A stretch of 32,000 bases of DNA from Candidatus Saccharimonadota bacterium (GCA_965227835.1 OZ245768.1:990001-1022000), one strand, 5' to 3'; shown: positions 4,272-27,518, numbered from the stretch's first letter. The notes: a model not told the origin generated them from the sequence alone. Translations and numbers: made by a program.

Positions 4272-4282
4272 AGATTTTTTTA

Positions 4283-6228: not shown

Positions 6229-7095
6229 ATATATATCTTCAGTCTCTTTTTCCCATTTCTCTATTCAATCTCTCCGGTCTCTTAACATCTCATAAAAATT
6301 ATCAAAATCTATCTTTATATCTTCTTTGTATAATCATATTACCCATATAAAATCTAAATGTTTCTTTGAAACTTTAAATCTTATCATACCTATATAAAAT
6401 TCAACTACATTTTTATCTCATTCTTTTACATCCTCTAATAATGAAATTATTTCTTGTATGTATAATAGGGATATGTCTTTCATATTTGTTACTATTTCAC
6501 AATAAAAACCTGTATGTGGATCCATTATATAACTGTCATTCTGCATACTATGAGATTTAAAGCCTAAATCTGGTTTTTGATTTTCATAATGAACTATTGC
6601 ATAGTCAATATGAAATATTTCAGGGGGTATCCATATATCTCCATCATATGATTCATTATATATAGATCTCTTACAAAAAGGTCATCCTTTTGTCTTTCAT
6701 GTCTCTTTTTCCCAAGCGTCTATATAGTCACTCCAATCTCTCATCATATGTAAAATATCTTCTATTTTTAAGTCTGTTACTATATAATCATCTGCATAAT
6801 TGTATGTAATAGTTACCTCAGAGTTAGGGTACTTTTCTCCATAATATCATTTTCATTTTTGATAACACCAAATTAATGTAGTTTCAAATCAAAATATAAA
6901 CTTCTCTCTCCTTCATTGACTCACTTCTTCAAGTTTACTTACTATCTCTCGAATGTCATATGATCATAGCTGGTTTAGTTCTGTATTTAATAAATAGGGA
7001 TCGTTACTTTCTTTCTCTTTTCAAATTCAATCTACCTTAATTTGAATAAATGGATTAACATTTGTTACAAAATAGTATTCAATTTTATTTAACAT
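6214..7095 (-). CDS. Putative cognate immunity protein of the EndoU-like orphan toxin (copy A, 293 aa)
   Basis: ATG at 7095, 5 nt after the toxin stop. Starts MLNKIEYYFVTNVNPFIQIKVDGIGKEK and ends ...DFDNFYEMLRDRRDGIEKWEKETEDIYKQYK*. No signal peptide. The immunity role is inferred from position only. Confidence 0.55.
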
Positions 7096-7100
7096 AATTT

Positions 7101-8384
7101 TTAATCAATAATAGGATAAAAAGTTCTTAATTCTTTTGTTCTCTCTATATATACAAACTCAATATTTATTCCATCAACTGTTGATGGTCACTTAAATATA
7201 TTTAAACCTAGTCAGGTAGCATTTGGGTCTGCTAATCCCTTATTATTTTCTATTGCATAAGTTACTTCATCTATAATCTTTTGCTTACTCCAGCTATCTG
7301 GGAAAAACGAAGAATTTCATACAGGTTTTCATCATTTTTTTGTTAAAGTATTATTATTTCCATAATCTATAACTACTTTTGCACTGTAAGGTTCATTCCA
7401 AGTATCAATTGATTTGTCTATATCTTCTAATTTAGCTACTCATTGTTGATTACTTTTGTTATAATGAGTTATTGCCTTTTGAGAATGAACTCAGTTGAAA
7501 GTTCAGTCTGACTTAAACTTAATCTCTACAATATGATCTATCTTTCATTCTACTTTCTTCCTTACATCTTTCACATATTTTACTCATTTGAATGATTTTT
7601 GTATAAGTGATTGTTCTCTTACTTTCTTCAAAAAATTCTCCAAACTCAATTTATCTTTCAATCTAACTATATCTTCTATATCGTCTAGCTTATATTCCTT
7701 AGCAACCTCTTTTGCTACTTCAAATATCTCTTCAATCTTCATTCATAGCTCTTTTCATAATTTCTCTAGAGATTTATTTAATAATTCTCTTGCTCATGAT
7801 CAACTTCATGCACCACTTGCTAATCATATTATTGTTAGAGTCTTTCAGAGTGTTCATAATTCATCACCTGTTATTGGATCTTTTCAGATAACTAGTGTTA
7901 ATATATCATATCACTCTCATACAATTGGGATTAGTGATACTATTATACTTGTTGTATTTCAATATTCTTCTTTTAGATCATATAGTTCTTTTTTTAATTC
8001 TTTTTCTTTCTCATCGTATTTTTTCCATTTCCGTATAAGTTTGACTTGACTCAAAAATTCTGTGTATCCTGTTGAGTTTATTTGTATTGTTTCTTGTTTT
8101 GTTGGTTGTTCTTTTGTTTTTGATTCAATGTTTGCTATGGATGTATTATCATATCTTGCTATTAATCTTTCTTTGTAATAGGTGATTTTGTTATTTCTTT
8201 TTATGTAGGGTTTAAAATTATTACATATTTCACAATTTTGTTTTGAATATCATACTATATATATTCCATCTTCCCTTTTTTCTAGTTTTTGTCTTTTAAT
8301 TTCTCAGTTTTTTGTTTGGTATTCAACTCACACTTCTTCCAGGGTTTCTGGGTCTGTGTTTATTTTGAATTTAAACTGGATTTT
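7101..8384 (-). CDS. Orphan toxin module A: junction segment, PT-TG-like domain and EndoU-like nuclease; no start codon
   Basis: A stop-to-stop frame of 427 codons. Junction segment: ...NTDPETLEEVGVEYQTKNGEIKRQKLEKREDGIYIVGYSKQNCEICNNFKPY.... Pre-toxin TG-like: ...SLIPIVGEGYDILTLVIGKDPITGDELGTLGKTLTIIGLASGAGSGSG.... Bacterial EndoU pattern: ...DHIVEIKFKSDGTFNGVHS...SSFFPDSWSKQKIIDEVTYAIENNKG...GPSTVDGINIEFVYIERTKELRTFYPIID*. The first in-frame ATG lies deep inside. Confidence 0.7.
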
Positions 8385-8776: not shown

Positions 8777-8984
8777 ATATTTTATTTAATATATAATTAT
8801 AATTTTTAAAATATTTATAATATCCGCTTACTCTTTTTCAATATTTGATAGCTTTTTCGTCACATTCTCATCATTTTTTTACACAAGAAGGTCACCCATT
8901 CCAAGCTTTTCATATATTTTCTGCCGTTATTTCTTTTCACTCTTCTAATATTTTTCCCTTTATTACATTGATCCTATAATTCAT
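8769..8984 (-). CDS. Small hypothetical protein (71 aa)
   Basis: ATG at 8984. Reads MNYRINVIKGKILEEGKEITAENIGKAWNGGPSCVKKGGECDEKAIKYGKRVSGYYKYFKNYNYILNKIYE*. It overlaps both neighbours by a few nt and has no recognisable family. Confidence 0.35.
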
Positions 8985-9588
8985 TATCTTCAAATATAAA
9001 TCTAGGACTTTTTTTTAAATCTAATAGAATTTCTTGTTGTTCTTTTGGGAGATTTTTTAATTCATTTAGTGAATAAAAATTCATTATATCTTGTGTCAAA
9101 ATTCAAAATTGTTTTAGGTCTTCAAAGGTTTCGGGAGTGTTATATTTTTTTCACATAATATAATAAAATCAAGCATAGTAGATTCTTGAATTTTTAGACA
9201 TAGAAAAAAATTCTTCTCATACTGAAATTGTATTATAATCTAAATTGAAATAATATTCATCATATATATATATATATATATAATCTCCTTTATTAAAGGC
9301 TCATTTTAAATGCCAAGATAAGCACTTTCTATTTTCAGAGTTACATATAGAGTTATAACGTTCAACAGGATCAAGTCAAAATCATGGAATAATTCTTTCT
9401 CATATATGATATTTTCATATTTTTGAATATAATGTATCTATGTACATATTCTTTTCTAATTCTCGGTAATATTGTTCATCTTTATGTGATATATAATAAT
9501 ATCAAGCCAATAAAAATAAGGAAAATAAACATATTAATATTACAAATAATCTATTTAGCATTAAAGTAATTTTATTTATATCAAACAT
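8974..9588 (-). CDS. Hypothetical single-pass membrane protein (204 aa), cassette B; paralog of 3699..4271
   Basis: ATG at 9588. Starts MFDINKITLMLNRLFVILICLFSLFLLAGYYY (TM helix), continues ...GDYIYIYIYDEYYF... and ends ...TPETFEDLKQFGILTQDIMNFYSLNELKNLPKEQQEILLDLKKSPRFIFEDNEL*. Length is a multiple of 3. Confidence 0.55.
9262..9282. repeat. (AT)10 microsatellite inside a coding region
   Basis: A 21-nt perfect AT/TA run that encodes YIYIYIY in 8974..9588. The paralogous site at about 3950-3975 has an interrupted version. Confidence 0.8.
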
Positions 9589-9591
9589 ATT

Positions 9592-10206
9592 TTAATAAAT
9601 TTTTTCTAAAATTTCTAAATTCCAAAAATATGTTTTTCAATATCATATTTCTTCATAATAGCTTCACCATGAATTTAAAATATCTTTTAATAATCATTTA
9701 TATCATTGATTAGGACTATATGTAGGTATAAAATCATATTTATCTGTGATAAAAATTTTCATATAAACTCAACTATCATCAACAACTGGTTCCATAGTCC
9801 AAGTAACATGTCAAAATGAAAAATATAAGTCCCAATTTCTAGTAGAGTTTTCTGAGTCCTCAATTAAAACTCATTTTTCTATTTCATCTCAATTAAAGGA
9901 ATTATTTTTATAGAAATTTTCAAACTCTTGTTCTCTAATATTATACCAACTAGTTTTCTTAACTTCTTTTGTAATCCAGTGATAATTTCAATATTCTAAC
10001 TTACTACCATCTCAATATATGAACTTTGCAAGCATAGCTGACGATATTTTTAAATTCAATCATTTTCAAGCTATTCATACCAAATTTAACATTATGGTAG
10101 CTGAAACTTTTTTATGTGACTGGTCTAAATAATACCAATAACTATTTCAAGCTATTTTTATATCTCAACTATCATTAGCTAATCAAATATTATTATTATA
10201 AATTTT
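9592..10206 (-). CDS. Hypothetical protein, open frame with no ATG near its 5' end; paralog of 4283..4918
   Basis: Reads KIYNNNIGLANDSGDIKIAGNSYWYYLDQSHKK...YGDGSKLEYGNYHWITKEVKKTSWYN...YDFIPTYSPNQGYKGLLKDILNSWGSYYEEIGYGKTYFWNLEILEKIY*. The stop lies 3 nt before the next ATG. Confidence 0.4.
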
Positions 10207-10861: not shown

Positions 10862-11120
10862 TTAGAAACTCATACTTTCTTTGATTTTTTCTCACTTTTC
10901 ATTCAACTTATAATCCGTAATATCAATCTTCTCTCCTTTTTTAATATTATAATTCTTATATTCTTCTAGTATACTATTTCTTTTATTTTCATATTCTTCT
11001 TTTAGATCATATAGTTCTTTTTTTATTCTTTTTCTTTTTCATCGTATTTTTTCCATTTCCGTATCAATTTGACTTGACTCAAAGATTCTGTGTATCTCGT
11101 TGAGTTTATTTGTATTGTTT
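10862..11120 (-). pseudogene. Nested toxin-linker remnant (copy B)
   Basis: Identical to 5970..6228 at an offset of 4892, including the same internal TAA. Confidence 0.45.
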
Positions 11121-11987
11121 ATATATATCTTCAGTCTCTTTTTCCCATTTCTCTATTCAATCTCTCCGGTCTCTTAACATCTCATAAAAATTATCAAAAT
11201 CTATCTTTATATCTTCTTTGTATAATCATATTACCCATATAAAATCTAAATGTTTCTTTGAAACTTTAAATCTTATCATACCTATATAAAATTCAACTAC
11301 ATTTTTATCTCATTCTTTTACATCCTCTAATAATGAAATTATTTCTTGTATGTATAATAGGGATATGTCTTTCATATTTGTTACTATTTCACAATAAAAA
11401 CCTGTATGTGGATCCATTATATAACTGTCATTCTGCATACTATGAGATTTAAAGCCTAAATCTGGTTTTTGATTTTCATAATGAACTATTGCATAGTCAA
11501 TATGAAATATTTCAGGGGGTATCCATATATCTCCATCATATGATTCATTATATATAGATCTCTTACAAAAAGGTCATCCTTTTGTCTTTCATGTCTCTTT
11601 TTCCCAAGCGTCTATATAGTCACTCCAATCTCTCATCATATGTAAAATATCTTCTATTTTTAAGTCTGTTACTATATAATCATCTGCATAATTGTATGTA
11701 ATAGTTACCTCAGAGTTAGGGTACTTTTCTCCATAATATCATTTTCATTTTTGATAACACCAAATTAATGTAGTTTCAAATCAAAATATAAACTTCTCTC
11801 TCCTTCATTGACTCACTTCTTCAAGTTTACTTACTATCTCTCGAATGTCATATGATCATAGCTGGTTTAGTTCTGTATTTAATAAATAGGGATCGTTACT
11901 TTCTTTCTCTTTTCAAATTCAATCTACCTTAATTTGAATAAATGGATTAACATTTGTTACAAAATAGTATTCAATTTTATTTAACAT
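11106..11987 (-). CDS. Putative cognate immunity protein of the EndoU-like orphan toxin (copy B)
   Basis: Same sequence as 6214..7095 at an offset of 4892. ATG lies 5 nt after the toxin stop. Confidence 0.55.
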
Positions 11988-11992
11988 AATTT

Positions 11993-13960
11993 TTAATCAA
12001 TAATAGGATAAAAAGTTCTTAATTCTTTTGTTCTCTCTATATATACAAACTCAATATTTATTCCATCAACTGTTGATGGTCACTTAAATATATTTAAACC
12101 TAGTCAGGTAGCATTTGGGTCTGCTAATCCCTTATTATTTTCTATTGCATAAGTTACTTCATCTATAATCTTTTGCTTACTCCAGCTATCTGGGAAAAAC
12201 GAAGAATTTCATACAGGTTTTCATCATTTTTTTGTTAAAGTATTATTATTTCCATAATCTATAACTACTTTTGCACTGTAAGGTTCATTCCAAGTATCAA
12301 TTGATTTGTCTATATTTTCTAATTTAGCTACTCATTGCTGGTTACTTTTATTATAATGAGTTATTGCCTTTTGAGAATGAACTCAGTTGAAAGTTCAGTC
12401 TGACTTAAACTTAATCTCTACAATATGATCTATCTTTCATTCTACTTTCTTCCTTACATCTTTCACATATTTTACTCATTTGAATGATTTTCGTATAAGT
12501 GATTGTTCTCGTACTTTCTTCAAAAACTTCCCCAAACTCAACTTATTCTTCATTTTCACTATATCTCCTATATCATCCAGTTTATATTCCTTAGCAATCT
12601 CTTTTGCTACTTCAAGTATCTCTTCAATCTTCATTCATAGCTCTTTTGATAATTTCTCTAGAGATTTATTTAATAATTCTCTTGCTCATAATCAGCTTCA
12701 TGCACCACTTGCTAATCATATTATTGTTAGAGTCTTTCAGAGTGTTCATAATTCATCACCTGTTATTGGATCTTTTCAGATAACTAGTGTTAATATATCA
12801 TATCACTCTCATACAATTGGGATTAGTGATACTATTATACTTGTTGTATTTCAATATTCTTCTTTTAGATCATATAGTTCTTTTTTTAATTCTTTTTCTT
12901 TCTCATCGTATTTTTTCCATTTCCGTATAAGTTTGACTTGACTCAAAAATTCTGTGTATCCTGTTGAGTTTATTTGTATTATTTCTTGTTTTGTTGGTTG
13001 TTCTTTTGTTTTTGATTCAATGTTTGCTATGGATGTATTATCATATCTTGCTATTAATCTTTCTTTGTAATAGGTGATTTTGTTATTTCTTTTTATGTAG
13101 GGTTTAAAATTATTACATATTTCACAATTTTGTTTTGAATATCATACTATATATATTCCATCTTCCCTTTTTTCTAGTTTTTGTCTTTTAATTTCTCAGT
13201 TTTTTGTTTGATATTCAACTCATACTTCTTCCAGAGTTTTTGGGTTTGTGTTTATTTTAAATTTAAATCCTCATATTATTTCATCTATTAGGTTTTCTAT
13301 GAAGTATTCTATTTCTATTAGATTTTTTTCTTCATTCGTGGTTTCTTTGGTATTTTCATTTTTTCCCTCTTCATCACTATCTTTTCAACTCTCAAGATTC
13401 TCTCATCATAACACTTTCAATAAAACACTTTCCTTATTTCATTCTCTATCTTCCATTCATATTATAACTTCTCATACTTCTATAGCCTTTATCTCAATAT
13501 AGTTTGTTTCAAAATAATTTACTGGGTTGCTACTATACTTTTTATATAATAATGCCTTATTATTAGTCTTGGTTAATTGTATGTGTCAGTTACTTTCATA
13601 TATTGGAAGTAGATATTTTTCTCAGATTTCTAGTTCTAATTCTTTATCTCTTTGAGAGATTACTAGATTTGTGTCTTTTATTTCAACTTCTATTTTTGCT
13701 TCTTGTCCGTATTTATCAAATATCTTTGCTTTGGTTTCTCATTTCTTTTTTCCTTTGATTTTTATTTCTCAGTCTTTGTCTACATCAAAATATATTATTT
13801 CTTCGTTGTATTCTCAATTTTTGTATCATCATCATCAGTCTAGTATTTTTCATTGGTATTTCTCATTTTCTTTTAATACTACTTTGTTTTTGTCTAACTT
13901 TATTTTAGGGGTTTTGTCTTTTATCTTTACTTTGAATTTAATCCGTTTCAAACATCTTTT
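11993..13960 (-). CDS. Orphan toxin module B: two Ig-like repeats, junction segment, PT-TG-like domain and EndoU-like nuclease; no start codon
   Basis: A stop-to-stop frame of 655 codons that opens directly after TAA 13961-13963. It begins ...KVKIKDKTPKIKLDKNKVVLKENEKYQGKILDGGGGYKNGEYNEEIIYFDVDKDGEIKIKGKKKGETKAKIF.... This stretch is near-identical DNA to 20820-21280 of the full-length toxin. From 13267 down it matches module A. Confidence 0.7.
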
Positions 13961-14017
13961 TTAAGTTCCAAAATTACTTAATGTTTATACCCAGCTTCTC
14001 TCACTTGTGTATCACTA

Positions 14018-14554
14018 CTATGAAAATCTCTCAAGGTTATTCATTCTTTTCAATCTCGTTTTTTTAACGATCCCAGTCATTTTCGTATAAAGTAAATAAT
14101 ACTCACAGCATTTCAAAACTCTCTCTCTAGTATCATCAAAAGAAAGCCATTCTCTCTTTATATCCTCTATAGCTTGCTTTGATTCTTCTTGTGTATATTC
14201 TTTTGATTTTACTAATTTATATTCTTTTAAATTTTCTCAATCTTTTTCTAATTCATGATATAATATTTTTATTTTCAATTTCCCATCTCTGAGTAAAGGA
14301 TAGAGATAGTCTAGGGTAAGGTCTAGTTGTTTTTCTCTATTGTATTTAATCTTTTCATACTCTTTATCTGTTATATTTTCTCACCAAAATTCATTTAATC
14401 ATACTGAATATTTATTTTCATATAAATCATAAACTACTACTGCTCTTCTTTCCTTGAATGAAAATCAGTCGCATATTCAATGTCTATCTATTATTTCATT
14501 TCAGTATCAATCTTTCGGAATTATTAGTCAATTAGTGTAAGCTTTTTTTAACAT
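14018..14554 (-). CDS. Array paralog 1 (putative immunity protein, 178 aa)
   Basis: Starts MLKKAYTNGLIIPKDGYGNEIIDRHGICDGFSFKERRAVVVYDLYENKYSVGLNEFW (N-type a). Contains ...LDLTLDYLYPLLRDGKLKIKILYHELEKDGENLKEYKLV... (short middle). (CT)5 at 14119-14128. Ends ...YYLLYTKMTGIVKKTRLKRMNNLERFS* inside the conserved box. Confidence 0.65.
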
Positions 14555-14566
14555 ATTAAAATATTT

Positions 14567-15235
14567 CTATTTAGGTAATAAAAATTTTATCTCACTAGGT
14601 CAATCTATTCATCATTCTTTCAATAAATCCATAGTAACTTCATGTCTATACCCAGCTTCTCTCACCTGCTTATCACTACTGTGAAAATCTCTCAAGGTTA
14701 TTCATTGCTTTCAGTTTCGTTTTTTTAACAATCCCATTCGTTTTCGTATAAAGTAAATAATACTCAACACATCTCAAAACTCTCTCTCTCTAGTATCTTT
14801 AATAGAAAGCCATTTTTTCTTAATATCTTCTATTACTTTTTGAGACTCTTTTTTAGTATACTCTGTATCATAAATCCAAGCTCAATCCCAATTAGAGTCC
14901 TGTAAGGAATTTTCAAAGTATTGCCTCCACCAATCATTAAGAGGGTTCTGTAATTCTTTTTTTAAATCTTTCTTAGTTTTTAAAAGTTTTTTAGTTTTTA
15001 CTTTCAACTTTCCATCTCTGAGTAAAGGATAGAGATAGTCTAGGGTAAGGTCTAGTTGTTTTTCTTCTGGTATTCTATTATATGTTCCTTTCGGCATATC
15101 ACATAACCAAAATTCATTTAATCATTTTGAATATTTATTTTCATATAAATCATATAAAAAATATTCTATTCATTCTTTATCTGTAAATCACTCTGTTATT
15201 CAATATATATCTTTTATGTCTTTTATTTTTTTCAT
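14567..15235 (-). CDS. Array paralog 2 (222 aa), frame-shifted into the toxin-tail frame
   Basis: Starts MKKIKDIKDIYGITEGFTDKEGIEYFLYDLYENKYSKGLNEFW (N-type b), with the long middle segment (track ORF 14882..15097 is part of it). (CT)6 at 14780-14791 makes the ORF continue as ...GITLRDFHSSDKQVREAGYRHEVTMDLLKEGGIDGPSEIKFLLPK*. Confidence 0.6.
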
Positions 15236-15369
15236 AATTCTATTGATTAGGAAGTAAAAACTTTATTTCAATCCCTTCTCATCTTAATTTTTGTAGTTTT
15301 CAATCTTTCCACTTCAACAAATCTATAGTAACTTCATGCTTAAACCCAGCATCATTCACTTGCTTATCA

Positions 15370-15975
15370 CTACTGTGAAAATCTCTCAAGGTTATTCACT
15401 CTTTTCAATCTCGTTTTTTTAACGATCCCATTCATTTTCATATAAAGTAAATAATACTCAAGACATCTCAAAACTCTCTCTCTAGTATCTTTAATAGAAA
15501 GCCATTTTTTCTTAATATCTTCTATTGCTTTTTGAGACTCTTTTTTAGTATACTCTGTATCATAAATCCAAGCTCAATCCCAATTAGAGTCCTGTAAGGA
15601 ATTTTCAAAGTATTGCCTCCACCAATCATTAAGAGGGTTCTGTAATTCTTTTTTTAAATCTTTCTTAGTTTTTAAAAGTTTTTTAGTTTTTACTTTCAAC
15701 TTTCCATCTCTTAATAAGGGATATAAATATACCAATGTAAGATCTAGTTGTTTTTCTCTATCATCTTTAATCTTTTCCCATTCTTCACCTGTTATATTTT
15801 CTCACCAAAATTCATTTAATCATACTGAATATTTATTTTCATATAAATCATAAACTACTACTGCTCTTCTTTCCTTGAATGAAAATCAGTCGCATATTCA
15901 ATGTCTATCTATTATTTCATTTCAGTATCAATCTTTCGGAATTATTAGTCAATTAGTGTAGGCTTTTTTTAACAT
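15370..15975 (-). CDS. Array paralog 3 (201 aa)
   Basis: N-type a (MLKKAYTNG...), long middle (...KVKTKKLLKTKKDLKKELQNPLNDWWRQYFENSLQDSNWDGAWIYDTEYTKKESQKAIEDIKKKWLSIKD). (CT)5 at 15474-15483. Ends ...NNLERFSQ*. Confidence 0.65.
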
Positions 15976-16096
15976 ATTAAAATATTTCTATTTAGGTAAT
16001 AAAAATTTTATCTCACTAGGTCAATCTATTCATCATTCTTTCAACAAATCTATAGTAACTTCATGCTTAAACCCAGCATCATTCACTTGCTTATCA

Positions 16097-16588
16097 CTAC
16101 TGTGAAAATCTCTCAAGGTTATTCATTGATTTCAGTTTCGTTTTTTTAACGATCCCATTCGTTTTCGTATAAAGTAAATAATACTCAACACATCTCAAAA
16201 CTCTCTCTATAGTATCATCAAAAGAAAGCCATTCTCTCTTTATATCCTCTATAGCTTGCTTTGATTCTTCTTGTGTATATTCTTTTGATTTTACTAATTT
16301 ATATTCTTTTAAATTTTCTCAATCTTTTTCTAATTCATGATATAATATTTTTATTTTCAATTTCCCATCTCTGAGTAAAGGATAGAGATAGTCTAAAGTT
16401 AACAATAATGCTTCTTCTTCTGATATTCTATTATATGTTCCTTTCGACATATCACATAACCAAAATTCATTTAATCATTTTGAATATTTATTTTCATATA
16501 AATCATATAAAAAATATTCTATTCATTCTTTATCTGTAAATCACTCTGTTATTCAATATATATCTTTTATGTCTTTTATTTTTTTCAT
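16097..16588 (-). CDS. Array paralog 4 (163 aa)
   Basis: N-type b (MKKIKDIKDIYG...), short middle. (CT)4AT at 16201-16210, which has the same length as (CT)5. Ends ...NNLERFSQ*. Confidence 0.65.
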
Positions 16589-16757
16589 AATTCTATTGAT
16601 TAGGAAGTAAAAACTTTATTTCAATCCCTTCTCATCTTAATTTTTGTAGTTTTCAATCTTTCCACTTCAATAAATCCATAGTAACTTCATGTCTATACCC
16701 AGCTTCTCTCACTTGTGTATCACTACTATGAAAGTCTCTCAAGGTTATTCATTGATT

Positions 16758-17315
16758 TTAGTTTCGTTTTTTAACGATCCCAGTCATTTTCGTATAAAGT
16801 AAATAATACTCAAGACATCTCAAAACTCTCTCTCTAGTATCTTTAATAGAAAGCCATTTTTTCTTAATATCTTCTATTACTTTTTGAGACTCTTTTTTAG
16901 TATACTCTGTATCATAAATCCAAGCTCAATCCCAATTAGAGTCCTGTAAGGAATTTTCAAAGTATTGCCTCCACCAATCATTAAGAGGGTTCTGTAATTC
17001 TTTTCTTAAATCTTTCTTAGTTTTTAAAAGTTTTTTAGTTTTTACTTTCAACTTTCCATCTCTTAGTAAAGGATAGAGATAGTCTAGGGTAATGTCTAGT
17101 TGTTGTTCTCTATTATCTTTTATTTTCTCCCATTCCTCTTGAGTTATGGTACTATTCATAAAATAATTTAGTCACACCGACTGTTTATTCCAATACAAAT
17201 CATAAATAGTTACAATCTTACCATTTTCCTCATCCACAGAAAATCAATCACAAATACCATAAATATCTTTGATTCTTTCTTTTTCTAAAAATTTTTTAAA
17301 GTTATTATCCTCCAT
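16758..17315 (-). CDS. Array paralog 5 (185 aa)
   Basis: Starts MEDNNFKKFLEKERIKDIYGICDGFSVDEENGKIVTIYDLYWNKQSVGLNYF (N-type d), long middle (contains track ORF 16926..17159). (CT)5 at 16826-16835. A T6 rather than T7 run gives the earlier end ...GIVKKRN*. Confidence 0.65.
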
Positions 17316-17479
17316 AACACATATTATTGTTTAGGTAATATAAATTTTACTTCTTTTACCTTTCCAAATTCTCACTTATTGTTTGTCTTCAACAAATCCA
17401 TAGTAACTTCATGTCTATACCCAGCTTCTCTCACCTGCTTATCACTACTGTGAAAATCTCTCAAGGTTATTCATTGATT

Positions 17480-18049
17480 TTAGTTTCGTTTTTTAACGAT
17501 CCCAGTCATTTTCGTATAAAGTAAATAATACTCACAGCATTTCAAAACTCTCTCTCTAGTATCTTTAATAGAAAGCCATTTTTTCTTAATATCTTCTATT
17601 ACTTTTTGAGACTCTTTTTTAGTATACTCTGTATCATAAATCCAAGCTCAATCCCAATTAGAGTCCTGTAAGGAATTTTCAAAGTATTGCCTCCACCAAT
17701 CATTAAGAGGGTTCTGTAATTCTTTTCTTAAATCTTTCTTAGTTTTTAAAAGTTTTTTAGTTTTCACTTTCAATTTCCCATCTCTGAGTAAAGGATAGAG
17801 ATAGTCTAGGGTAATGTCTAGTTGTTTTTCTCTATTATATTTAATCTTTTCATACTCTTTATCTGTTATATTTTCTCACCAAAATTCATTTAATCATACT
17901 GAATATTTATTTTCATATAAATCATAAACTACTACTGCTCTTCTTTCCTTGAATGAAAATCAGTCGCATATTCAATGTCTATCTATTATTTCATTTCAGT
18001 ATCAATCTTTCGGAATTATTAGTCAATTAGTGTAAGCTTTTTTTAACAT
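17480..18049 (-). CDS. Array paralog 6 (189 aa)
   Basis: N-type a, long middle. (CT)5 at 17548-17557. T6 run, so it ends ...GIVKKRN*. Confidence 0.65.
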
Positions 18050-18205
18050 ATTAAAATATTTCTATTTAGGTAATAAAAATTTTATCTCACTAGGTCAATC
18101 TATTCATCATTCTTTCAATAAATCCATAGTAACTTCATGTCTATACCCAGCTTCTCTCACCTGCTTATCACTACTGTGAAAATCTCTCAAGGTTATTCAT
18201 TGATT

Positions 18206-18757
18206 TTAGTTTCGTTTTTTAACGATCCCAGTCATTTTCGTATAAAGTAAATAATACTCAAGACATCTCAAAACTCTCTCTCTAGTATCTTTAATAGAAA
18301 GCCATTTTTTCTTAATATCTTCTATTACTTTTTGAGACTCTTTTTTAGTATACTCTGTATCATAAATCCAAGCTCAATCCCAATTAGAGTCCTGTAAGGA
18401 ATTTTCAAAGTATTGCCTCCACCAATCATTAAGAGGGTTCTGTAATTCTTTTCTTAAATCTTTCTTAGTTTTTAAAAGTTTTTTAGTTTTCACTTTCAAT
18501 TTCCCATCTCTGAGTAAAGGATAGAGATAGTCTAGGGTAATGTCTAGTTGTTTTTCTCTATTATATTTAATCTTTTCATACTCTTTATCTGTTATATTTT
18601 CTCACCAAAATTCATTTAATCATACTGAATATTTATTATAGTATAACCTATATACAGTAACAATGATTCTATCTTTATCTGTGAATCAAGAACATATACC
18701 ATGAAAATCTTTTATTCACTTTTTTTCTAAAAATTCATTCAATTCATTATCTATCAT
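18206..18757 (-). CDS. Array paralog 7 (183 aa)
   Basis: Starts MIDNELNEFLEKKGIKDFHGICSGFTDKDRIIVTVYRLYYNKYSVGLNEFW (N-type c), long middle. (CT)5 at 18274-18283. Ends ...GIVKKRN*. Confidence 0.65.
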
Positions 18758-18934
18758 AATTCTATTTGTTAGGAAGTAAAAATTTCACCTCCTTTTCAAT
18801 TGGTTTTAACTCTCACTTATTGTTTGTCTTCAACAAATCCATAGTAACTTCATGCTTAAACCCAGCTTCTCTCATTTGTGTATCACTACTGTGAAAATCT
18901 CTCAAGGTTATTCATTCTTTTCAGTTTCGTTTTT

Positions 18935-19411
18935 TTAACGATCCCATTCATTTTCATATAAAGTAAATAATACTCAACACATCTCAAAACTCTCTCTCTC
19001 TCTAGTATCATCAAAAGAAAGCCATTCTCTCTTTATATCCTCTATAGCTTGCTTTGATTCTTCTTGTGTATATTCTTTTGATTTTACTAATTTATATTCT
19101 TTTAAATTTTCTCAATCTTTTTCTAATTCATGATATAATATTTTTATTTTCAATTTTCCATCTCTGAGTAAAGGATAGAGATAGTCTAGGGTAATGTCTA
19201 GTTGTTGTTCTCTATTGTCTTTAATCTTTTCCCTTTCTTCATCTGTTATATTTTCTCACCAAAATTCATTAAGTCATATTGAATATTTATTATAGTATAA
19301 CCTATATACAGTAACAATGATTCTGTCTTTATCTGTGAATCAAGAACATACACCATGAAAATCTTTTATTCACTTTTTTTCTAAAAATTCATTCAATTCA
19401 TTATTTATCAT
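18935..19411 (-). CDS. Array paralog 8 (158 aa), immediately downstream of the full-length toxin
   Basis: ATG at 19411, 4 nt after the toxin stop. Starts MINNELNEFLEKKGIKDFHGVCSGF (N-type c), short middle. (CT)7 at 18990-19003 puts the 3' end in the third frame, ending ...RERESFEMCGVLFTLYENEWDR*. Confidence 0.6.
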
Positions 19412-19415
19412 AATT

Positions 19416-22400
19416 CTATTTGTTAGGAAGTAAAAATTTCACCTCCTTTTCAATTGGTTTTAACTCTCAATTATTGTTTGTCTTCAACAAATCTATAGTA
19501 ACTTCATGCTTAAACCCAGCATCTCTCACTTGTGTATCACTACTATGAAAATCTCTCAAAGTTATTCATTCTTTTCAATCTGGAGATGTATACCTATAAA
19601 CACTTCATTTATTTGATGGCTTTTTTTCTCACTTCCACCCCTTAGTTTCTAAACTTTTCATTACACCTTCAACTCCTTCCTTATCTCACAATACCTTCAC
19701 TGCTCATCATTCTAATCATTTAACCTTATCTAATCAATCGACCTTTTCTAAATCCTGAGCCACTTTTAATATATCATCAACTCAAGTTATATCCTTAAAT
19801 TTACTTGCTATAAATCAAGACCTTCATGTAGACCTTACCCTCTTCACAACCCTCTCACTACTCTTAGCTCATTTCAGTTTTCCGGGTCATACAAACATCA
19901 AACTAGAACTCACTCATACATATCATTCTATCCATTGTATATTATAGGATGTAAGATATTCTTTATAACCCTCATACTCATTATATACTTCCTCTATTTG
20001 ATTATATAATTCTCATAATCATTCTTTCGCTTTCTCCCAATCTTCTTCTGCTGTTCTTTCTCAAGTTATATATCCATATAGTATTTTTCAGCTTCATTTT
20101 AACAAATTTATTATATCTTTTGGGGTATCTTGTAATTCTTCTATCGTGTCTTTTATTGCTTCTTTACTTCAATCTATATATCATTGATTATCTGTTTTTA
20201 TTTCTCTTATCTTCTTTTTTATATTATAGAATTTTTCTTTTGTTTCTTCTACATATTCTTGTACTCAGCTTATTTCTAGGTTTTCTTCTTTGTTTTTAGT
20301 ATTTGTAGTTCTTATTCTATTATCTGCAAATGAGAGGTATGTATTGGTGTTATAGTATGTTGTAGTATTGTTTGTGTCTATGAAGTATGGTTGAAATTCG
20401 TTGTAACAGTTTATACATATTTCTTTGTCTAATCAGAGTATATATATTCAGTCTTCTTCTTTTTCTAGTTTTTCTCTTACATGATTTCAATTTTCTCATT
20501 TGTATTGTATTCATATTTCTTTTAGGGTTTCTGGGTTTCAAGTTATTTCAAAGTATAGGCTTGATAGTCAATCAATACTTGTATTTGATGAATATTGGAG
20601 GTTAGTGAATTTTGAGGTTTGAGGTTCTTCTCAGTTACTTTCATTTCACTCTTTTTCATTATCTTCTATTTCTTCTTCATTATTCTCATCTCATTTCTCC
20701 TCCTCTCCTTCTCACTTATCTTCTCATCATAACACTCTCAATAACACACTTTCCTTATTTCATTCCCTATCTTCCATTCATATTATAACTTCTCATACTT
20801 CTATAGCCTTTATCTCAATATAGTTTGTTTCAAAATAATTTACTGGATTGCTACTATACTTTTTATATAATAATGCCTTATTATTAGTCTTGGTTAATTG
20901 TATGTGTCAGTTACTTTCATATATTGGAAGTAGATATTTTTCTCAGATTTCTAGTTCTAATTCTTTATCTCTTTGAGAGATTACTAGATTTGTGTCTTTT
21001 ATTTCAACTTCTATTTTTGCTTCTTGTCCGTATTTATCAAATATCTTTGCTTTGGTTTCTCATTTCTTTTTTCCTTTGATTTTTATTTCTCAGTCTTTGT
21101 CTACATCAAAATATATTATTTCTTCGTTGTATTCTCAATTTTTGTATCATCATCATCAGTCTAGTATTTTTCATTGGTATTTCTCATTTTCTTTTAATAC
21201 TACTTTGTTTTCTTTTAATTTTATTTTGGGGGTTTTGTCTTTTATCTTTACTTTGACTATGCTTATTATATCTCAACTTTGATATATATATAGTTCTGTT
21301 TCTCATTTGGTTTTTCATATTATAGAGAATTTTTCATAATTAGTTCTTTTCCCGTTTTCCCATATTCTTTGTTTACTTATTTGTATTATTTCCGGATTTG
21401 TTGTTGAGAATGTATAGTCTTTATTTATTTCTTGTTTGAATGATTCGCATGTTATTCATATTGGTACTTCGCATTCATATGTTCTTGGGGGTTTAGGTTT
21501 TATTGTTATTTCTAGTATGTGGCTTATGTAGTCTCAATCATAGGATTTTACATATATATTTGAAGTTCAGCTTAGTTTTCATTCTAGTTTTATTTTATTT
21601 TTTGTTCAGTTTATTTCTATTATGTTGGGTCTTGAATTGTTATAATAGTATCATCTGTTTTCTATTTTAAATAAGCAACTTTTTCATACTTCTGTTTCAC
21701 ATTTGTGTATTCTTGGGTTTGGAACTGGTTTTACTTTTACATTCCATATTTTCCTTAGTCATTTTCAACTTTTGTATATCTTTATTTTTGTTGTTCAGGC
21801 TTTTTTTCAGCATATTCAGTTTATTTTTTCCGTTTCTCAAGCTACTCTTTTTTTTATTCACCATTCAACACTAGCTATACCACTATTATCTGGCTTAAAG
21901 TTATAATCATCTCTATACCATGTTTTTATACAATCTGTTTCATTTAGGGTAAAATTTTCCTCACTTGCTTTGGATATTATTTTTATTTCATATCTTGGCC
22001 ATTTCCTTCAATCTTTTTCATTTATGTATATTGTTGATTCTCAAATTTTATCAGGATCTATATACACTGTATCCTTTCATACTCTAAGTCTGTAATCAAA
22101 TAATCATAAATTATCTGATTTTATGTCATAGTTGTCTACATTTTCTGGTAATATTAATTTTTGGGTGGCTCATACCTCCATTTCTATTTTGTATTTTTTA
22201 AATGGGGGTTTAGGTATTATTGTTATTTTATAGGTCTTTTTATTTCTTCATAAGGAATCTTTTACATAAATTTCTGTTTCTCATCATACTTGTCATCTTA
22301 TGTATGTTTTTTTATCATGAGGTCTTCTTTTTATACTAGTAAAATGGTTATTACTGGTTATTTTGTGTCAAGGTGAAATATATTCTAGTATTTCATCTCA

Positions 22401-25400
22401 TTGATAAATTGTTCTTGTTTCTATTTCTGGAGGATCTGTTATTATATTTATATCTAATATGTGCCTGACTACTCAATCACCACCTGATAAGTAATATTTT
22501 ATCTTTCAAAATAGGTTTCATCTAAATTTCATTACTTTAAAATAATGATTGTATTCAAGTTTAGACATTGATTTTACACTATGTTCTCACTCAACTGAAT
22601 AGCTGTAATATGTGTTACCTATTCAATATATATTTATATATGTTCATTCTTTTATGTTTAGAGTATGGATTTTTGGTTCTGGTAAGGGTATTATTTTTAC
22701 TTTATGATTAGCAACATGATATCACCTAGTTTTCACATATAATTCTAATTCTCAATCCTTTTTTCATGTAATACAATAACCTTTTTCATATATTTCTAAT
22801 TCAGCTAATTCTTCATTATTCGTGGAATATTCAGTTTCTATTCATACTTCTATACATTTCCTCTTTGAATTATATACCTCAAATACTTTTTCTTCTATTT
22901 TTGGATGCACCATTATATCTATAGTATATAGATGTATATTTTGATCATATACTCTATATCTTACTTTTCAGGGGGTTTTTCATAAAAGTTTTATATCCCA
23001 ATTTTTTTGATGTGTTTCTATTTCTCAACCATCTAGCCTGTCATAATAAAATTTAAGATCCCTTCAATTAGTTTTAACTACTAAATCAGAGTATTCTCAT
23101 TGTTTAATATTTAAATCATATTGTATTACCTCAGGGGCTGGTTTTATTATTAGTTTAATTATATATTTATTTGATACTCTTATATATGCTGTTCATATTT
23201 CTTTTGCTCTTATTGTGAAATCGCGATATCCCTTAGATAAATCTACCAAACTATTACTCGATATAGAGTAATTTTCGCTGTAAGCTTTTTTTAGGTATCT
23301 TTTGTATGCTTGTCATTTATAAATTTCTATTTCAAATGTAGGTGGAGGAGTTATGGTAAGCTTTAATATATATTGTAAATATCAATTTTTATCTGATACT
23401 TTAATATTTACAGTTCAAACTTTTTTTGCACTTAAAATATATTGATCCTCTCTAGTTCAAATACTTATTATATCATTATTAGATACTTCATATTTATGGT
23501 TTCGAGCATTTTTTAGATTTACTATTGAATTCTTTCATTCTTGTAATGAAATATTTTTAATTTCTACAGGTTTTATGTTTAACTTTAGAGTATATATATG
23601 TATATTTTGTCTATTTTTAATTTTTACATACAAAGTTCCAACTTTTTTTGTAAGTAAATGATAATAGTCACCTCCTTTAGAAAAACTAGCTAAGCTCCTA
23701 TCCGATAATTCATATCTATATATCCAAGTAGCCGGTAATTTCTCAGAGTGTTTTTTTCAAACATTGATGCTTCTATCAAAAACAGGAATTCATTTTATAC
23801 TAAGACTGACTTTATGATCTGTATGGCTACGACGAGGATCTGTTATTTTTATAGTAACATTTCAAGCTTTTCTAGCATATATACGAAATGACCTTCTTAT
23901 TTTTTTTATTTCTACTAAACTAGGATTTGATACTTGAATTCTTTTGTATGAATGAACAAAATAATAATTTCAAACTGTTATACTTTTATATTTAGTAGGA
24001 AGGTATCTATTTATACTAATTCAATCTGTTTGCTCTTCTTGAAATGTTTCAGGTTCTATAATTAATTCCTCTCATAAATCATCGTTTTCTTCTAACATAT
24101 CTCCATTTTCTTCTTTTATTTTTTCATTTTCTTCAAACTCTTTTATGTATAATTCTTTTTCTTGATTTTTATCTTCTAGATTATCTTCTCAAAGACTGTT
24201 TATTTCTATATTTCATGTTTCATCATTTAAAAAACTATTTTTCTCTATTTCTTCTAACTCTTCTTGACTTATAATTCATGGTTTTATTTCTTCTACTTCA
24301 TTTCGTTTCATTAATTCTTCTAGCTCTTCTTCACTTAATTCTAACTCATAGTTACTCTTAGAACCATCAGAAAAATTATTTATTTCAAGTCAGCCATCCT
24401 CGTAATTTTCTATAATTTCTATTTCTTCTTTTTTTATCTCTCATATTTCTGAATTGTTATTTTTAAGATAATCTAGCATTTCTTTTTCTTCTTCACTGCT
24501 CAATTTTTCTTCGTCTTGATTATCTTTTTCATTTATTTTTTCAAATTTGAGGAACTCTATACTACTTTTTTCATCATTTCAAATATTTTCATCTAAATTA
24601 TTTATTTTTATTCAATTTTCCTCTTCTATAATCAACTCCTTATCATAAAAGTCATTTATTCTCTCTAGTTTTACTTCTTTGTTTTCTAGCTTTTCTCATA
24701 ATTCTAAACCTCATGAAAAACCATTTATAATCTCATTTGGATTATAATTTTTTACTTCTAACTCTTGGAAGTTTTCTTCTGTGTATAAACCATTATTTTC
24801 TCAAGTATTATTTATCTCTAGTCATTTTTCTGCTCAATCTATATACAATTCTTTTGTATGTTTCAATTCATCTATTTTTTCTTCTATTTCAATTTCCACA
24901 TTTTTAAATCATTCTAAACCTAGTTCTTCTTCATTTATTTCTAGTTTTTCTTCCTTTTTTCATAGCTCATATTCTTCTAAAAACAAATCTTTAAGATCTT
25001 GTTTTTGATTATTATTTATTTCTACTCATTTCTCTGCTCAATCTATATACAATTCTTGCATTTTATTTTCAAGCTCAGGAGAATTTTCTAAAAAAGTTTT
25101 TTCTTCTATTTCTTCATTCTCATAAAAATCTTGAGATATATCTTTATAGTTAAAATCCTTTCACACAGGTATTCAGTGCGTTATTTTTTCACTATTTAAT
25201 TCAGTATTTCAAATATCATTTATTTCTATATTTTTTATTTCTACATTTTCATCAAAATACCTGTCTCAAAAAATACCATCAAATTTCTTTGATTCTTCTT
25301 TTATTAGTTCTAATTTTTCTAATTCTCCATATGTAAATATAGATTTATTTTCTTTGTAATTTTGATTTATTTCTAAATTTTCCTTAGAGTTTAAAAAATT

Positions 25401-27518
25401 TAGTAAAATTGGATTTAGTTTTGTATTTTCAGATTCTTGTGTAGCTTCATTTTCTTCTATTTTTTGTTCTGTATCTTCTTTTTTTTCTTCAAGAAATTTA
25501 CTACTTTCTATTAACTCTATTTTTTCAACTATTAAAGCATCATCTTTATTTTCCTGTAAATTATCTCCTTTTCCTTCCTCTATCTTCCCTTCTTCCACTT
25601 TTTCTTCAGTCTCTTGTTCTTGCTTAATTTCATCACTAATTTCTTCCTTATCTTCTTCTTTTTTAATTTCATTTTCTTTACCTTTATTCTCCTCTAATTC
25701 ACTTTTCTTTTCTTCTATTCCATTTTCAACTGTTTCTTCACTTTCAACTTTCAACTTTTCCCTTTCAACTAAGCTTAATTCTAGTGAAGATATTATTTGA
25801 TTTAAGCTGGCAAATTTGGAAATTGGTTTATTTGACTCTGTTATAATACTTGTAGAATTTTCTTGCAATATTTGCCTAGCTTGTTTTGTTGTAAGATTTG
25901 GTTTGTAGCTTTTTATTATTGATATTAATCATACTATATGAGGAGTAGCCATGCTTGTTCAGCTTAATCTCCTATAGTTTCATTTATTTGTTGGGAATGT
26001 TGAATATATTGATACTCATGGAGCATTTATATCTACTTTGTCTCAATAATTTGAGAAACTTGCTCTGGTATTACTTTCATCTATTGCTGCTACTGATATT
26101 GTTTCCTCGCATCATCATGGAATATAGTTTCTTGTATCAGTATTTCAGTTTCAACTAGCTGATACAATTATTTTTCAGTTTCTAGTTGCTGATTTTATTC
26201 AATCACATATTGGATTACTGTTAGGATTTCATCTTCATCAAAGACTCATATTTACTATATCTATATCATTTTCTTTTATATATTCTAGTGCCTTTATTAC
26301 TGCATAATTTGGACAAAATCAATTCTTATCACATATTTTTAGTGGAATTATTTTACTGTAGGGATTTATTCAAAGTATTCATTTTCAATCTAATTTTGAT
26401 GATATTGTTCAAGCTATATGAGTTCAGTGTCATTGGTCATCCTGAGTGTCTTTTTCTGGATTTATAAAATTTTGTCATTTTAGAACCTGTCATTTTAGAT
26501 CTGGGTGATTTGAATCTATTCAAGTATCTATTATGGCTATTTTTATTTTTTTATTATTTTGTTTTTGATAAATTTCTGTTTGTTTTTCTAGTTTTAAAAG
26601 GTAGTTTATAGGATTATATTTTCTTATACCCCATGTTTTTTCCAAATTTTCCAAACCTAGTTTATTTTGAATTTCTTTATTTCTTTTTAAAAATTCTTCA
26701 TCTTTTTCTAACACTCTTCATATATCCTTCTCTCCTTTAAGGAGAGGGGCTAGGGGTGAGGTCTCCTCAGATTGAGTCGGGAGTGATGATTGTTCAGACT
26801 TGGACGAACTTTGGTTTATAGAATATATTTCTGGTTTTACTATTTTTATATTTAAAAAATTTTCTGGAATTTTTCATATTTCTATTTGTCATAATATCTC
26901 TTCTACAAATATTCAACTTTCTGGTAGTGTTATCTCATAATATTTTTGTTTTCAATTATTATAAAGGTAATTTATCTTGGTTTTTTCTTCGAATTTTTCA
27001 AAAATATTTTTTACATGATTTTTATTTTTGTTTGTTTCTACTATAAGTGTATAGTTTTTTTCTTGCTTTAGCGAATTTTTCAGTGTATCATAAGCTTGTT
27101 TTTTCTTTCTTAGACTTGGTGCTATATCCTCATCTATTCAGCTTGATAATTTAGTATCTTTACTAAGACTTGATACAGCTTTTAAAACAACTTTCTTTCT
27201 TGTATCTTGGGCTATTTTATTGATGTTTTTTGTACTTTTTTCTTTCTGTATTTGTTCTTGAGCTTCCTCTAAAGTCTCTTTTATTTCTTCTTTTTTTTCT
27301 TCTAGTTTTTCTTGCAACTCTTCATCTTTTATTACATCTTCCATTTTATCAGTTGCTTTTTCTAAGACTTTTTCTACTTTTTCTAGAAATTTTTCTGTTT
27401 TTTGCCTAGTTTGCTCTATTTGAGCTTTTTCTGATTGAACAGATGCATAAATTATTTGTATGTTGGTATTTCATAAAAGAAATACCAATAAAAGAAGTTT
27501 GCATATTGTTTTTTGCAT
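19416..27518 (-). CDS. Giant secreted polymorphic-toxin protein (2700 aa): signal peptide, S8 subtilisin-like protease, acidic repeats, about 13 Ig-like repeats, PT-TG-like linker, HicA-like C-terminal domain
   Basis: ATG at 27518 gives MQKTICKLLLLVFLLGNTNIQIIYASVQ. With TGA=Gly one frame runs to TAG 19416-19418 (8103 nt, a multiple of 3). Track ORFs 27138..27344, 26520..26714 and 25266..25868 all lie in this frame. I checked the frame at six internal anchor points. I saw no in-frame TAA or TAG during manual translation. Confidence 0.8.
19419..19668 (-). other. C-terminal toxin domain with a HicA/YcfA-like pattern
   Basis: Reads GVMKSLETKGWKGEKKPSNKGSVYRYTSPDGKEGITLRDFHSSDTQVRDAGFKHEVTIDLLKTNNNGELKPIEKEVKFLLPNK*. 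Compare the HicA pattern L..L...GW......GSH..Y.HP.G...T.P.H......GT...I...AGL. The canonical GSH His is Val here. The 19600-19900 stretch looks more G+C-rich than its surroundings. Confidence 0.35.
20830..24010 (-). repeat. About 13 tandem Ig-like (Big_2-type) repeats of about 85-95 aa within the giant CDS
   Basis: A recurring pattern of the type ...G.(T/V).(I/L)Y(V/I)K......Y.(I/L).(I/V).(I/V).P.P.... Examples are KGETELYIYQSGDIISIVKVKIKDKTP, VGTLYVKIKNRQNIHIYTLKLNIKP and GTSNIYVKSYDGDYISHILEITIKPKPP. Confidence 0.55.
24010..25800 (-). repeat. Acidic E/K-rich low-complexity region with reiterated ...G..(E/K)IN(N/S)... modules
   Basis: Examples are ELYIDGAEKGVEINNNQ, ELYIDGAEKGLEINNTGENNG, ENGIKINNLDENIGN, EDGGLEINNFSDGS, ETGNIEINSLGEDN and DIGNTELNSEK, embedded in Glu/Lys-rich spacers. 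Confidence 0.5.
25808..26591 (-). other. Peptidase S8 (subtilisin-like) domain of the giant CDS
   Basis: Catalytic triad motifs are KIAIIDTGIDSNHPDL (Asp codon 26526-26528), DDQGHGTHIAGTI (His codon 26427-26429) and LSGTSMATPHIVG (Ser codon 25953-25955). There is also VSASGNGN. Several of the motif Gly residues are TGA. Confidence 0.85.

Follow-up and report, generated by a model that had tools for sequence, protein, structure and literature searches.

Organization of the locus

We analyzed a stretch of 32,000 nucleotides (nt) from a Candidatus Saccharimonadota bacterium (GCA_965227835.1 OZ245768.1:990001-1022000), hereafter the window, in which a very large putative toxin gene is followed by a tandem array of eight paralogous genes, imm1 to imm8, each carrying a CT dinucleotide tract close to its 3' end. 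The tract-bearing genes, the toxin gene and the displaced toxin fragments that alternate with the array genes all lie on the minus strand (Table 1). The GC content of the window is 25.7%, and translation table 11 yields only 23 open reading frames (ORFs) of at least 60 amino acids (aa) in the 32 kb; once TGA is taken as sense, 52 stop-to-stop frames reach at least 100 aa and together amount to 13,050 aa. The genome decodes TGA as glycine, not tryptophan (code 25), because the Walker A motif of an ABC-ATPase reads IIGPSGSGKST only with TGA as Gly, because TGA is by far the commonest Gly codon of the window (334 of 442), and because in the alignment of the family described below TGA positions match Gly encoded by GGN in other members, for example in LLRDGKLK. 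Code 25 is used by Gracilibacteria and Absconditabacteria. All window proteins were retranslated with this code; a table-11 annotation breaks up nearly every gene (e.g. 471-1136 and 19416-27518).

The product of the toxin gene starts with what resembles a signal peptide, contains a subtilase domain (Pfam Peptidase_S8, E=2e-52) and a long stretch of repeats, and closes with a C-terminal domain of ~120 aa, which ends in ...GITLRDFHSSDTQVRDAGFKHEVTIDLLKTNNNGELKPIEKEVKFLLPNK before the stop and to which no family could be assigned. Searches of this domain against Pfam and the PDB, both as a single sequence and as a 4-sequence profile, returned only sub-threshold Pfam matches to DUF7028 (E=1e-5) and HicA (E=0.07) and spurious PDB matches; a HicA-like character of the domain may be considered as a lead. 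A homology search with the C-terminal 125 aa returned only P0007, a fused protein of a related genome. The domain follows the pattern ...KGW...DGK.GITLR.F.SS......T.DL......E[IV]KF..P before its stop, which we also observe at two distant loci (window 19416-19800; L004 9718-9969; L002 1500-1851), and in L004 it forms a stand-alone protein of 83 aa that is followed by a homologue of the array genes.

The first array gene starts five bases after the toxin stop. Upon aligning the DNA of 11 units, eight from the window and three from the related genome L001, we find that each unit consists of a copy of the last ~50 codons of the toxin gene, 5-13 nt, and then an immunity-type gene. Because a large toxin gene and an array of paralogous genes occur together with an orphan toxin module bearing PT-TG and EndoU ends, the locus appears to be organized as a polymorphic-toxin locus, and the array proteins probably have an immunity function. 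Downstream cassettes whose 5' part is homologous to the main toxin gene, as in orphan cassettes, are present in the form of eight toxin-tail fragments, each with an immunity paralogue after it, and the PT-TG/EndoU module repeats ~1 kb of the toxin. Scanning the array for promoters and terminators gave no promoter-like enrichment and no terminator, which is compatible with one operon and not informative.

Tract length sets the reading frame of the 3' end

A prediction made from the window by a model (the original prediction) had described CT tracts of differing length at the same position in all eight genes, and their coordinates and lengths are exactly as it gave them: from imm8 to imm1 the values of n in (CT)n are 5, 6, 5, 4 plus AT, 5, 5, 5 and 7. 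No further (CT)n or (AG)n run of at least 4 units occurs anywhere in the 32 kb window. On the coding strand the tract is (AG)n and sits inside each gene ~18 codons before the native stop; at n=7 it reads AGA GAG AGA GAG AGT, encoding Arg-Glu-Arg-Glu-Ser (RERES), and is followed by FEMCGVLFTLYENEWDR and the stop. The three 3' readings that had been proposed were all reproduced on the minus strand with TGA as sense, with n=5 giving ...RERVLRCLEYYLLYTKM.GIVKK, n=6 giving ...REREFGDVLSIIYF...GITLRDFHSSD...FLLPK and a stop, and n=7 giving ...RERESFEMCGVLFTLYENEWDR and a stop. The placement of the (CT)7 gene directly after the toxin gene was likewise correct, as was a second length difference in a T run, which has six bases in three copies and seven in five.

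The T6/T7 run overlaps the native TAA stop and then runs into the spacer (in imm1, native stop 18935-18937 against run 18930-18936), and its length affects only out-of-frame readings, the run being non-coding in the native frame. The statement that this run moves the stop therefore holds for the out-of-frame reading and fails for the native one. We also observe that the displaced toxin fragment of each T6 unit opens with TAA (18206-18208, 17480-17482 and 16758-16760), the codon being TGA (Gly) in the other units, and that this TAA stops the reading exactly where (CT)5 together with T6 would restore the toxin-tail frame.

The (AG)7 state is the native form of a new protein family

A first homology search returned paralogues from this genome, three genes of L001 and one distant gene, P0009; P0009 and its neighbor in L002 end in ...RERKSFENSGVEFILPEKN... 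and in ...RNDFEMFGVEFILPENEWEY with a stop, respectively. An exhaustive profile search expanded the family to 46 homologues (cluster representatives), some at 30-45% identity, nearly all of which match the profile through its last position and terminate 1-2 residues beyond it. The C-terminal consensus of the family, ...RERESFE..GV.FTLPENEW.. followed by the stop, corresponds to the frame of (CT)7 (frame C), and three of the five columns conserved at 90% or more, F142, V147 and L151, lie past the tract. In an AlphaFold2 model of the L001 orthologue P0008, which carries W at the TGA positions (pLDDT 90.8, pTM 0.84), the tract falls in a helix (126-136) followed by the last beta-strand (137-141), and pLDDT there is 96-97. 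Foldseek comparison of this model with the PDB gave no meaningful match (best E=0.3, TM below 0.26), and the array proteins have no Pfam match at E below 0.01. EsaG (DUF600), TipC, Barstar and other named immunity families were not matched, the likeness to them lying in locus organization only, and the array genes appear to constitute a previously undescribed putative immunity-protein family. Its members come mostly from TGA-recoded genomes (P0005-P0046), and some adjoin Barstar-like and Colicin-D-like genes.

Since the frame-C ending is conserved in the 46 homologues, (AG)7 is the native in-frame state, and (AG)6 and (AG)5, shifted by -2 and -4, lack a conserved structural element. The polarity of the original prediction, in which a length of 14 terminates the protein early, is thereby reversed: this is the full-length form, and in place of three meaningful 3' ends, lengths 10 and 12 represent frameshift alleles deleting three of the five most conserved columns of the family. 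By this measure imm1, adjacent to the toxin gene, is the sole intact copy among the eight window genes, the other seven being frameshifted. What had been taken for a toxin-tail fusion arises by reading on into one of the displaced toxin 3' fragments, which lie between every gene pair; imm7 runs through 27 out-of-frame codons into fragment 7. Off-frame ORFs run long because only TAA and TAG stop translation, and our estimate of the chance that an off-frame stays open is ~0.16 in frame B, over the 22 codons that precede the tail, and ~0.07 in frame A, over 33 codons. A hand count over the 56 nt past the tract in 11 haplotypes gave 3 synonymous among ~8 changes in frame C, 2 in frame A and 1 in frame B, which favors frame C weakly and comprises too few changes to use.

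The tract is a hot spot for length change

Within the conserved 3' block of the 11 units, insertions and deletions are found only at the AG tract and at the A/T run, so the pattern is specific to simple repeats and is not general noise. A single flanking haplotype (type-1 upstream, "gaaatgctg" downstream) bears (AG)7, (AG)6 and (AG)5 in different units. Furthermore, the distant homologue P0022, at ~39% identity, has the same pure tract (tct AGAGAGAGAGAGAG ttttgaa), and a homology search revealed two P0022 variants that are identical up to the tract and differ in their C-termini. The P0022 protein with (AG)7 is present on seven contigs, an (AG)6 form on a 2534-nt contig from SRR32022420 and an (AG)8 form on a 907-nt contig from SRR32022516; contigs from different samples, aligned over ~790 columns of gene and flanks, differ in nothing but the tract units, and the probability that two changes would both fall within 14 of 790 positions is ~3e-4 if all sites are equally mutable. 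An independent -2 frameshift is seen in the L016/L017 lineage, where the homologous purine tract is one unit short and the native end ...RRSYEDWGFMFTLTENEWTI with its stop is left in the +1 frame, and L021 has (AG)9 at the homologous site, in frame.

Other members of the family encode RERES as AGA GAA AGA GAA AG[TC], and the tract of unit R2 in L001 is interrupted (AGAGATAGGGAGAG). From the codon usage of the window a pure (AG)7 for RERES has an expected probability of ~0.005, and pure AG tracts occur in at least three lineages. A scan of metagenome DNA with a pattern of tract and flanks returned 7 loci, all of them chance matches in unrelated genes, and the scan of genome contigs yielded, besides the L001 genome (listed once more as L003), only L004, a distant locus from Peribacteria. 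Overall, these comparisons support the view that the tract is a hypermutable simple-sequence repeat and a slippage hot spot, with replication slippage the likely mutational mechanism, and the slipped-strand variation that the original prediction proposed for putative immunity genes is upheld by the unlike lengths between the same flanks, the (AG)6, (AG)7 and (AG)8 forms of the homologue and the independent -2 frameshift. The sequence-level features of a contingency gene are present, namely a repeat inside the ORF, a frame set by the number of units and a length that varies between otherwise identical sequences, the last of these as seen in the P0022 lineage and the window paralogues.

Toxin tips and immunity N-termini are exchanged together

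The units are mosaics, with four N-terminal types (a-d), two central types and several 3' haplotypes that assort independently of the upstream type, and the type of the toxin tip matches the N-terminal type of the next gene in 11/11 units. Upon comparing the window with L001, we find that the match is confined to the immunity array and the last ~1.2 kb of the toxin gene (86-95% nucleotide identity); elsewhere neither the toxin genes nor the flanks match, and the carrier gene of L001 is otherwise unrelated. GC content is 26% in the window versus 34-39% in L001, in which the shared piece forms a low-GC island of 27-31%. Since the shared module stands amid unmatched sequence and is a low-GC island in L001, the toxin C-terminal region and immunity module have apparently moved horizontally. 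The array has 8 copies in the window and 3 in L001.

Within the shared part, the two nearly identical toxin C-terminal regions differ only at the tip (...TIDLLKTNNNGELKPIEKEVKFLLPNK in the window, ...TMDLLKWKDGKLQKLRGEGSEIKFLLPNQ in L001), and the adjacent immunity gene covaries with it in its N-terminal type, a in the window and d in L001, as in cassette exchange. The unit that is swapped comprises the last ~17-20 codons of the toxin and the first ~75 codons of the immunity gene (19416-19470 with 19180-19411; L001 9300-9600), which suggests that the toxin tip and the immunity N-terminus form a specificity interface exchanged as one small cassette. The frame and the terminal motif E[IV]KF[LI]LP are preserved in each of the four tip variants, and the motif also ends the L002 and L004 toxins and the fragments upstream of homologues in L012 and L013; because frame and motif are kept and the motif is shared with distant toxins, the displaced fragments are former toxin ends and not junk. 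Toxin tail fragments also lie between the immunity genes of the distant locus L002.

Table 1. Features of the toxin-immunity locus, with positions counted from the first letter of the window
Feature	Position	Strand	CT tract	T run	Remarks
Putative polymorphic toxin gene	19416..27518	-			2700 codons, code-25 ORF, 8.1 kb
Toxin gene 3' segment	19416..19577	-			Last 53 codons; segment repeated after every array gene (unit alignment, frame-B translation)
imm1	18935..19411	-	(CT)7, 18990-19003	T7, 18930-18936	158 aa; type a N-terminus; native end ...SFEMCGVLFTLYENEWDR, stop 18935-18937; only intact array gene; directly after toxin gene
Toxin 3' fragment 1	18762..18923	-			GKEGITLRDFHSSD...KTNNKGELKPIEKEVKFLLPNK and stop; tip type a; imm2 5 nt later
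imm2	18206..18757	-	(CT)5, 18274-18283	T6, 18215-18220	Type a; -4 frameshift, reads ...RERVLRCLEYYLLYTKMTGIVKKRN and stop; unused native frame and stop 18219-18221 intact
Toxin 3' fragment 2	18062..18205	-			Tip type b, ...KEGGIDGPSEIKFLLPK and stop; first codon TAA, TGA (Gly) in other copies
imm3	17480..18049	-	(CT)5, 17548-17557	T6, 17489-17494	Type b; frameshifted
Toxin 3' fragment 3	17324..17479	-			Tip type c, ...KTNNKGEFGKVKEVKFILPKQ and stop
imm4	16758..17315	-	(CT)5, 16826-16835	T6, 16767-16772	Type c; frameshifted
Toxin 3' fragment 4	16593..16757	-			Tip type d, ...KWKDGKLQKLRGEGIEIKFLLPNQ and stop
imm5	16097..16588	-	(CT)4+AT, 16201-16210	T7, 16141-16147	Type d; (CT)5-length allele, one substitution shortening the pure repeat; frameshifted
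Toxin 3' fragment 5	15988..16134	-			Tip type b
imm6	15370..15975	-	(CT)5, 15474-15483	T7, 15414-15420	Type b; frameshifted, reads on to ...KKTRLKRVNNLERFSQ and stop
Toxin 3' fragment 6	15240..15407	-			Tip type d
imm7	14567..15235	-	(CT)6, 14780-14791	T7, 14720-14726	Type d; -2 frameshift; 222-aa 'fusion' ORF
Toxin 3' fragment 7	14567-14713	-			Tip type b
imm8	14018..14554	-	(CT)5, 14119-14128	T7, 14059-14065	Type b; frameshifted
Toxin 3' fragment 8, truncated	13978..14052	-			GKEGITLRDFHSSDTQVREAGYKH and stop; at junction with next orphan module
Orphan toxin module	11993..13960	-			Open frame without own upstream start; repeats ~1 kb of the main toxin's pre-toxin region; PT-TG and EndoU nuclease domains at its end
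Module shared with L001	19416-20572 and 14018-19411				L001 8206-11336

Probable drift of orphan copies or a possible maintained switch

We consider it probable that the tract is a hypermutable coding repeat which is ON in the toxin-adjacent, presumed cognate, immunity gene and has drifted OFF in the downstream orphans. Drift to OFF is favored for the orphans because the copy next to the toxin reads in frame in L001 as it does in the window, with the downstream copies shifted in 7/7 cases in the window and 1/2 in L001, because the shifted copies are mostly n=5, including three consecutive units that are recent duplicates, and because a substitution in imm5 shortens the pure repeat while the gene stays OFF. 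In this mechanism, AG units would be gained and lost by replication slippage within the coding (AG)n; (AG)7 would yield the family-conserved C-terminal half-helix and final beta-strand (FE..GV.FTL.ENEW), and the (AG)6 and (AG)5 alleles would replace this segment. Selection against self-intoxication would keep the toxin-adjacent copy in frame, and the seven redundant orphans would drift to OFF lengths, which would then be spread as units were duplicated and underwent gene conversion. That TGA is not a stop and that a toxin 3' fragment lies downstream of every gene would together account for the long 'alternative' C-termini and the 'fusion' as by-products. Under this reading, function has presumably been lost in the frameshifted copies and selection presumably acts on the cognate copy. 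Several observations weigh against it. All seven shifted copies keep the 18-codon native tail and its stop intact in the unused frame C, which fits very recent inactivation or homogenization, but equally a reversible switch; the occurrence of pure (AG)7 in at least three lineages despite a probability of ~0.005 could mean that mutability is maintained; and the in-frame adjacent copies of the two genomes may share one horizontally moved module and hence not be independent.

It is possible, though we hold it to be unlikely, that the locus is instead an adaptive contingency locus, in which each putative immunity paralogue is phase-variable (ON at n=4, 7 and 10, OFF at n=5, 6, 8 and 9) and a clonal population would hold a stochastic mix of immunity repertoires against the toxin-tip variants of competitors, at a lower expression cost. 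The hypermutability of the homologous tract in natural samples agrees with this, as does the persistence of pure AG tracts of 7-9 units in several lineages against codon usage; every OFF allele of the window is one unit from an in-frame length (4 or 7) with the native tail open, and frameshift switching by a CT dinucleotide is established in Helicobacter pylori oipA (PMC10564699). Frequent switching would however give a mixture of OFF lengths, and those of the window are mostly one state, n=5, common to recent duplicates. The imm5 substitution also argues against it, and a pure tract is not required, given the interrupted RERES codons (AGA GAA AGA GAA) of other members and the interrupted R2 of L001; moreover, the tract is short (5-7 units) and located at the 3' end of the gene. 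The stronger proposal that the repeat is maintained, with the paralogues acting as independent stochastic ON/OFF switches that make up a combinatorial phase-variable immunity repertoire in an episymbiotic bacterium of the candidate phyla radiation (CPR), we put forward as speculative.

Of the choice that the original prediction left between decay and an on/off/fusion switch, decay is thus what we favor for the seven orphans, and the fusion or three-way component is not supported. That lengths 10, 12 and 14 would encode three useful C-termini, including a deliberate fusion of immunity protein and toxin tail, is improbable. All three frames are open for 18-70 codons past the tract and the (AG)6 fusion recurs in the related genome (P0007), but open off-frames at the estimated probabilities (~0.16 for B, ~0.07 for A) are expected by chance, frame C alone is conserved in the 46 homologues, and, outside the frameshifted copies in the window genome and L001, no homologue has a C-terminus like those of frames A and B. 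These two frames would also delete the confidently modelled helix and strand, and in the three T6 copies the TGA-to-TAA change halts the reading that returns to the toxin-tail frame. Sequencing or assembly error at dinucleotide and homopolymer repeats, in a collapsed or mis-polished array, is very improbable. Tandem units of ~700 bp at 83-100% identity are indeed hard to assemble; yet the 8.1 kb toxin ORF passes through 47 homopolymers of at least 6 bases, 15 of at least 7 and 4 of at least 8 with no frameshift, and further long ORFs are also unbroken. Units that differ in flanking haplotype share the -4 state, nearby substitutions (TGA to TAA, and "tc") accompany T6 in 3/3 carriers, and non-native lengths are found both in an independent assembly (L001) and in short-read contigs of the homologue. 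Hardly credible, finally, is a rescue of the shifted copies through programmed frameshifting by the ribosome or through slippage of the polymerase on the AG tract, for which the one favorable point is the native tail that stays open in the unused frame; the tract has no slippery heptamer, the only A7 run lying past the native stop, and the -4 and -2 alleles would need different shifts. Programmed frameshifting was rejected on the lack of a slippery site at the tract. Transcriptional slippage is known from long homopolymers and is not known to occur on (AG)5.

Relation to known systems

The closest parallels to the tract are contingency loci based on simple sequence repeats, for example H. pylori oipA with its intragenic CT dinucleotide repeat (PMC10564699). 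As in oipA, the number of units of an intragenic CT/AG tract sets the frame, the length varies between otherwise identical sequences, and the ON state is defined by a conserved downstream peptide and not by the repeat count as such. The oipA repeat lies in the signal-peptide region, whereas the tract of the window is ~18 codons from the 3' end, where an OFF state swaps the C-terminus and does not abolish the protein; the putative toxin-immunity gene class and the code-25 CPR host are new, and for the window a reversible and beneficial switch would be a hypothesis.

With respect to the array, Garrett et al. 2022 (PMC9484751) describe tandem arrays of immunity paralogues, Staphylococcus aureus esaG and streptococcal tipC, that evolve by homologous recombination. 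In line with that account, the window has non-identical immunity paralogues downstream of a toxin, conserved blocks flanking variable ones, mosaics and differences in copy number, and, as reported for tspA, toxin 3' fragments inside the immunity cluster. The window family differs in being unrelated to EsaG/DUF600 or TipC in sequence and fold (no Pfam match, no Foldseek match in the PDB) and in that every unit carries a toxin 3' fragment; a frameshift-prone repeat in immunity genes, present in the window, is not described in the part of that source which the comparison covered. Additionally, CdiA, Rhs and Neisseria MafB loci carry orphan or displaced cassettes of C-terminal toxin and immunity genes (PMC4287609 and references therein). 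The window cassettes resemble them in that a part homologous to the expressed toxin is retained ahead of a variable toxin end and its matching immunity gene, and in that a cassette of one genome is the expressed end of the other (tip a with immunity a in the window, tip d with immunity d in L001); they differ in that the swap unit is very small and not a whole toxin domain, and in that a putative surface protein with a subtilase domain, from a CPR bacterium, serves as the carrier. Neither an immunity gene controlled by a repeat nor a polymorphic toxin locus from these phyla appeared in our literature search, whose coverage was incomplete.

Other features of the window and of homologous loci

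The orphan toxin module matches PT-TG (E=5e-9) and EndoU_bacteria (E=1e-14) in Pfam, has its own downstream genes and recurs as a second partial copy at 7101-8384. It belongs to a duplicated block of several kb (5970-8384 and 10862-13960) that contains the orphan PT-TG/EndoU end, a gene of 293 aa and an ORF of 64 aa; the 293-aa downstream gene is identical in both copies (6214-7095 and 11106-11987). Two more pairs of related small genes, at 3699-4759 and 8974-10092, are presumably further toxin or immunity cassettes. Between the cassette copies lies a minus-strand ORF of 145 aa (5244-5681, MSHKYAKQSHVNWDCTYHIVVVPKYRKKILF...), a candidate Y1 transposase of the IS200/IS605 type.

In L012, at ~600-812 upstream of the homologue P0012, a short frame ending ...SSTFFPDNWSKEKIKNEEVKFVFPNNTN and a stop joins an EndoU-like segment, compared here with SSFFPDSWSKQKI of the window orphan toxin, to a toxin tip of the E.KF.FP kind, as though two toxin types had recombined there and left a scar. 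In L018 (1-5714), a large Peptidase_S8 carrier with a ParB-like end (DGHHRFEAAKHLG) occurs in a TGA-recoded genome and is followed by a weak DUF6896 gene and then by an N-terminally truncated member of the immunity family. Giant subtilase-bearing proteins may be a general toxin carrier in these bacteria.

Implications

Even if the tract is a mutational hazard only, the annotation of this locus is corrected: a single intact putative immunity gene is accompanied by seven orphans that are frameshifted and by eight displaced fragments of the toxin 3' end, an architecture that is hidden entirely when TGA is read as a stop. A new putative immunity-protein family is defined, with 46 cluster representatives, a confident model and no PDB or Pfam match, and it is paired with a toxin domain ending in E[IV]KF..P; a very small swap unit, consisting of toxin tip and immunity N-terminus, appears to move between genomes of different GC content. 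If the repeat were a maintained switch, this would be, according to the literature searched, the first immunity-gene system known to be phase-variable, and code-25 bacteria would have their first described contingency locus based on a simple repeat. Phase variation by simple repeats would then extend to toxin immunity and to the candidate phyla radiation, and the locus would offer a testable model for the balance of cost and benefit in carrying spare immunity genes.

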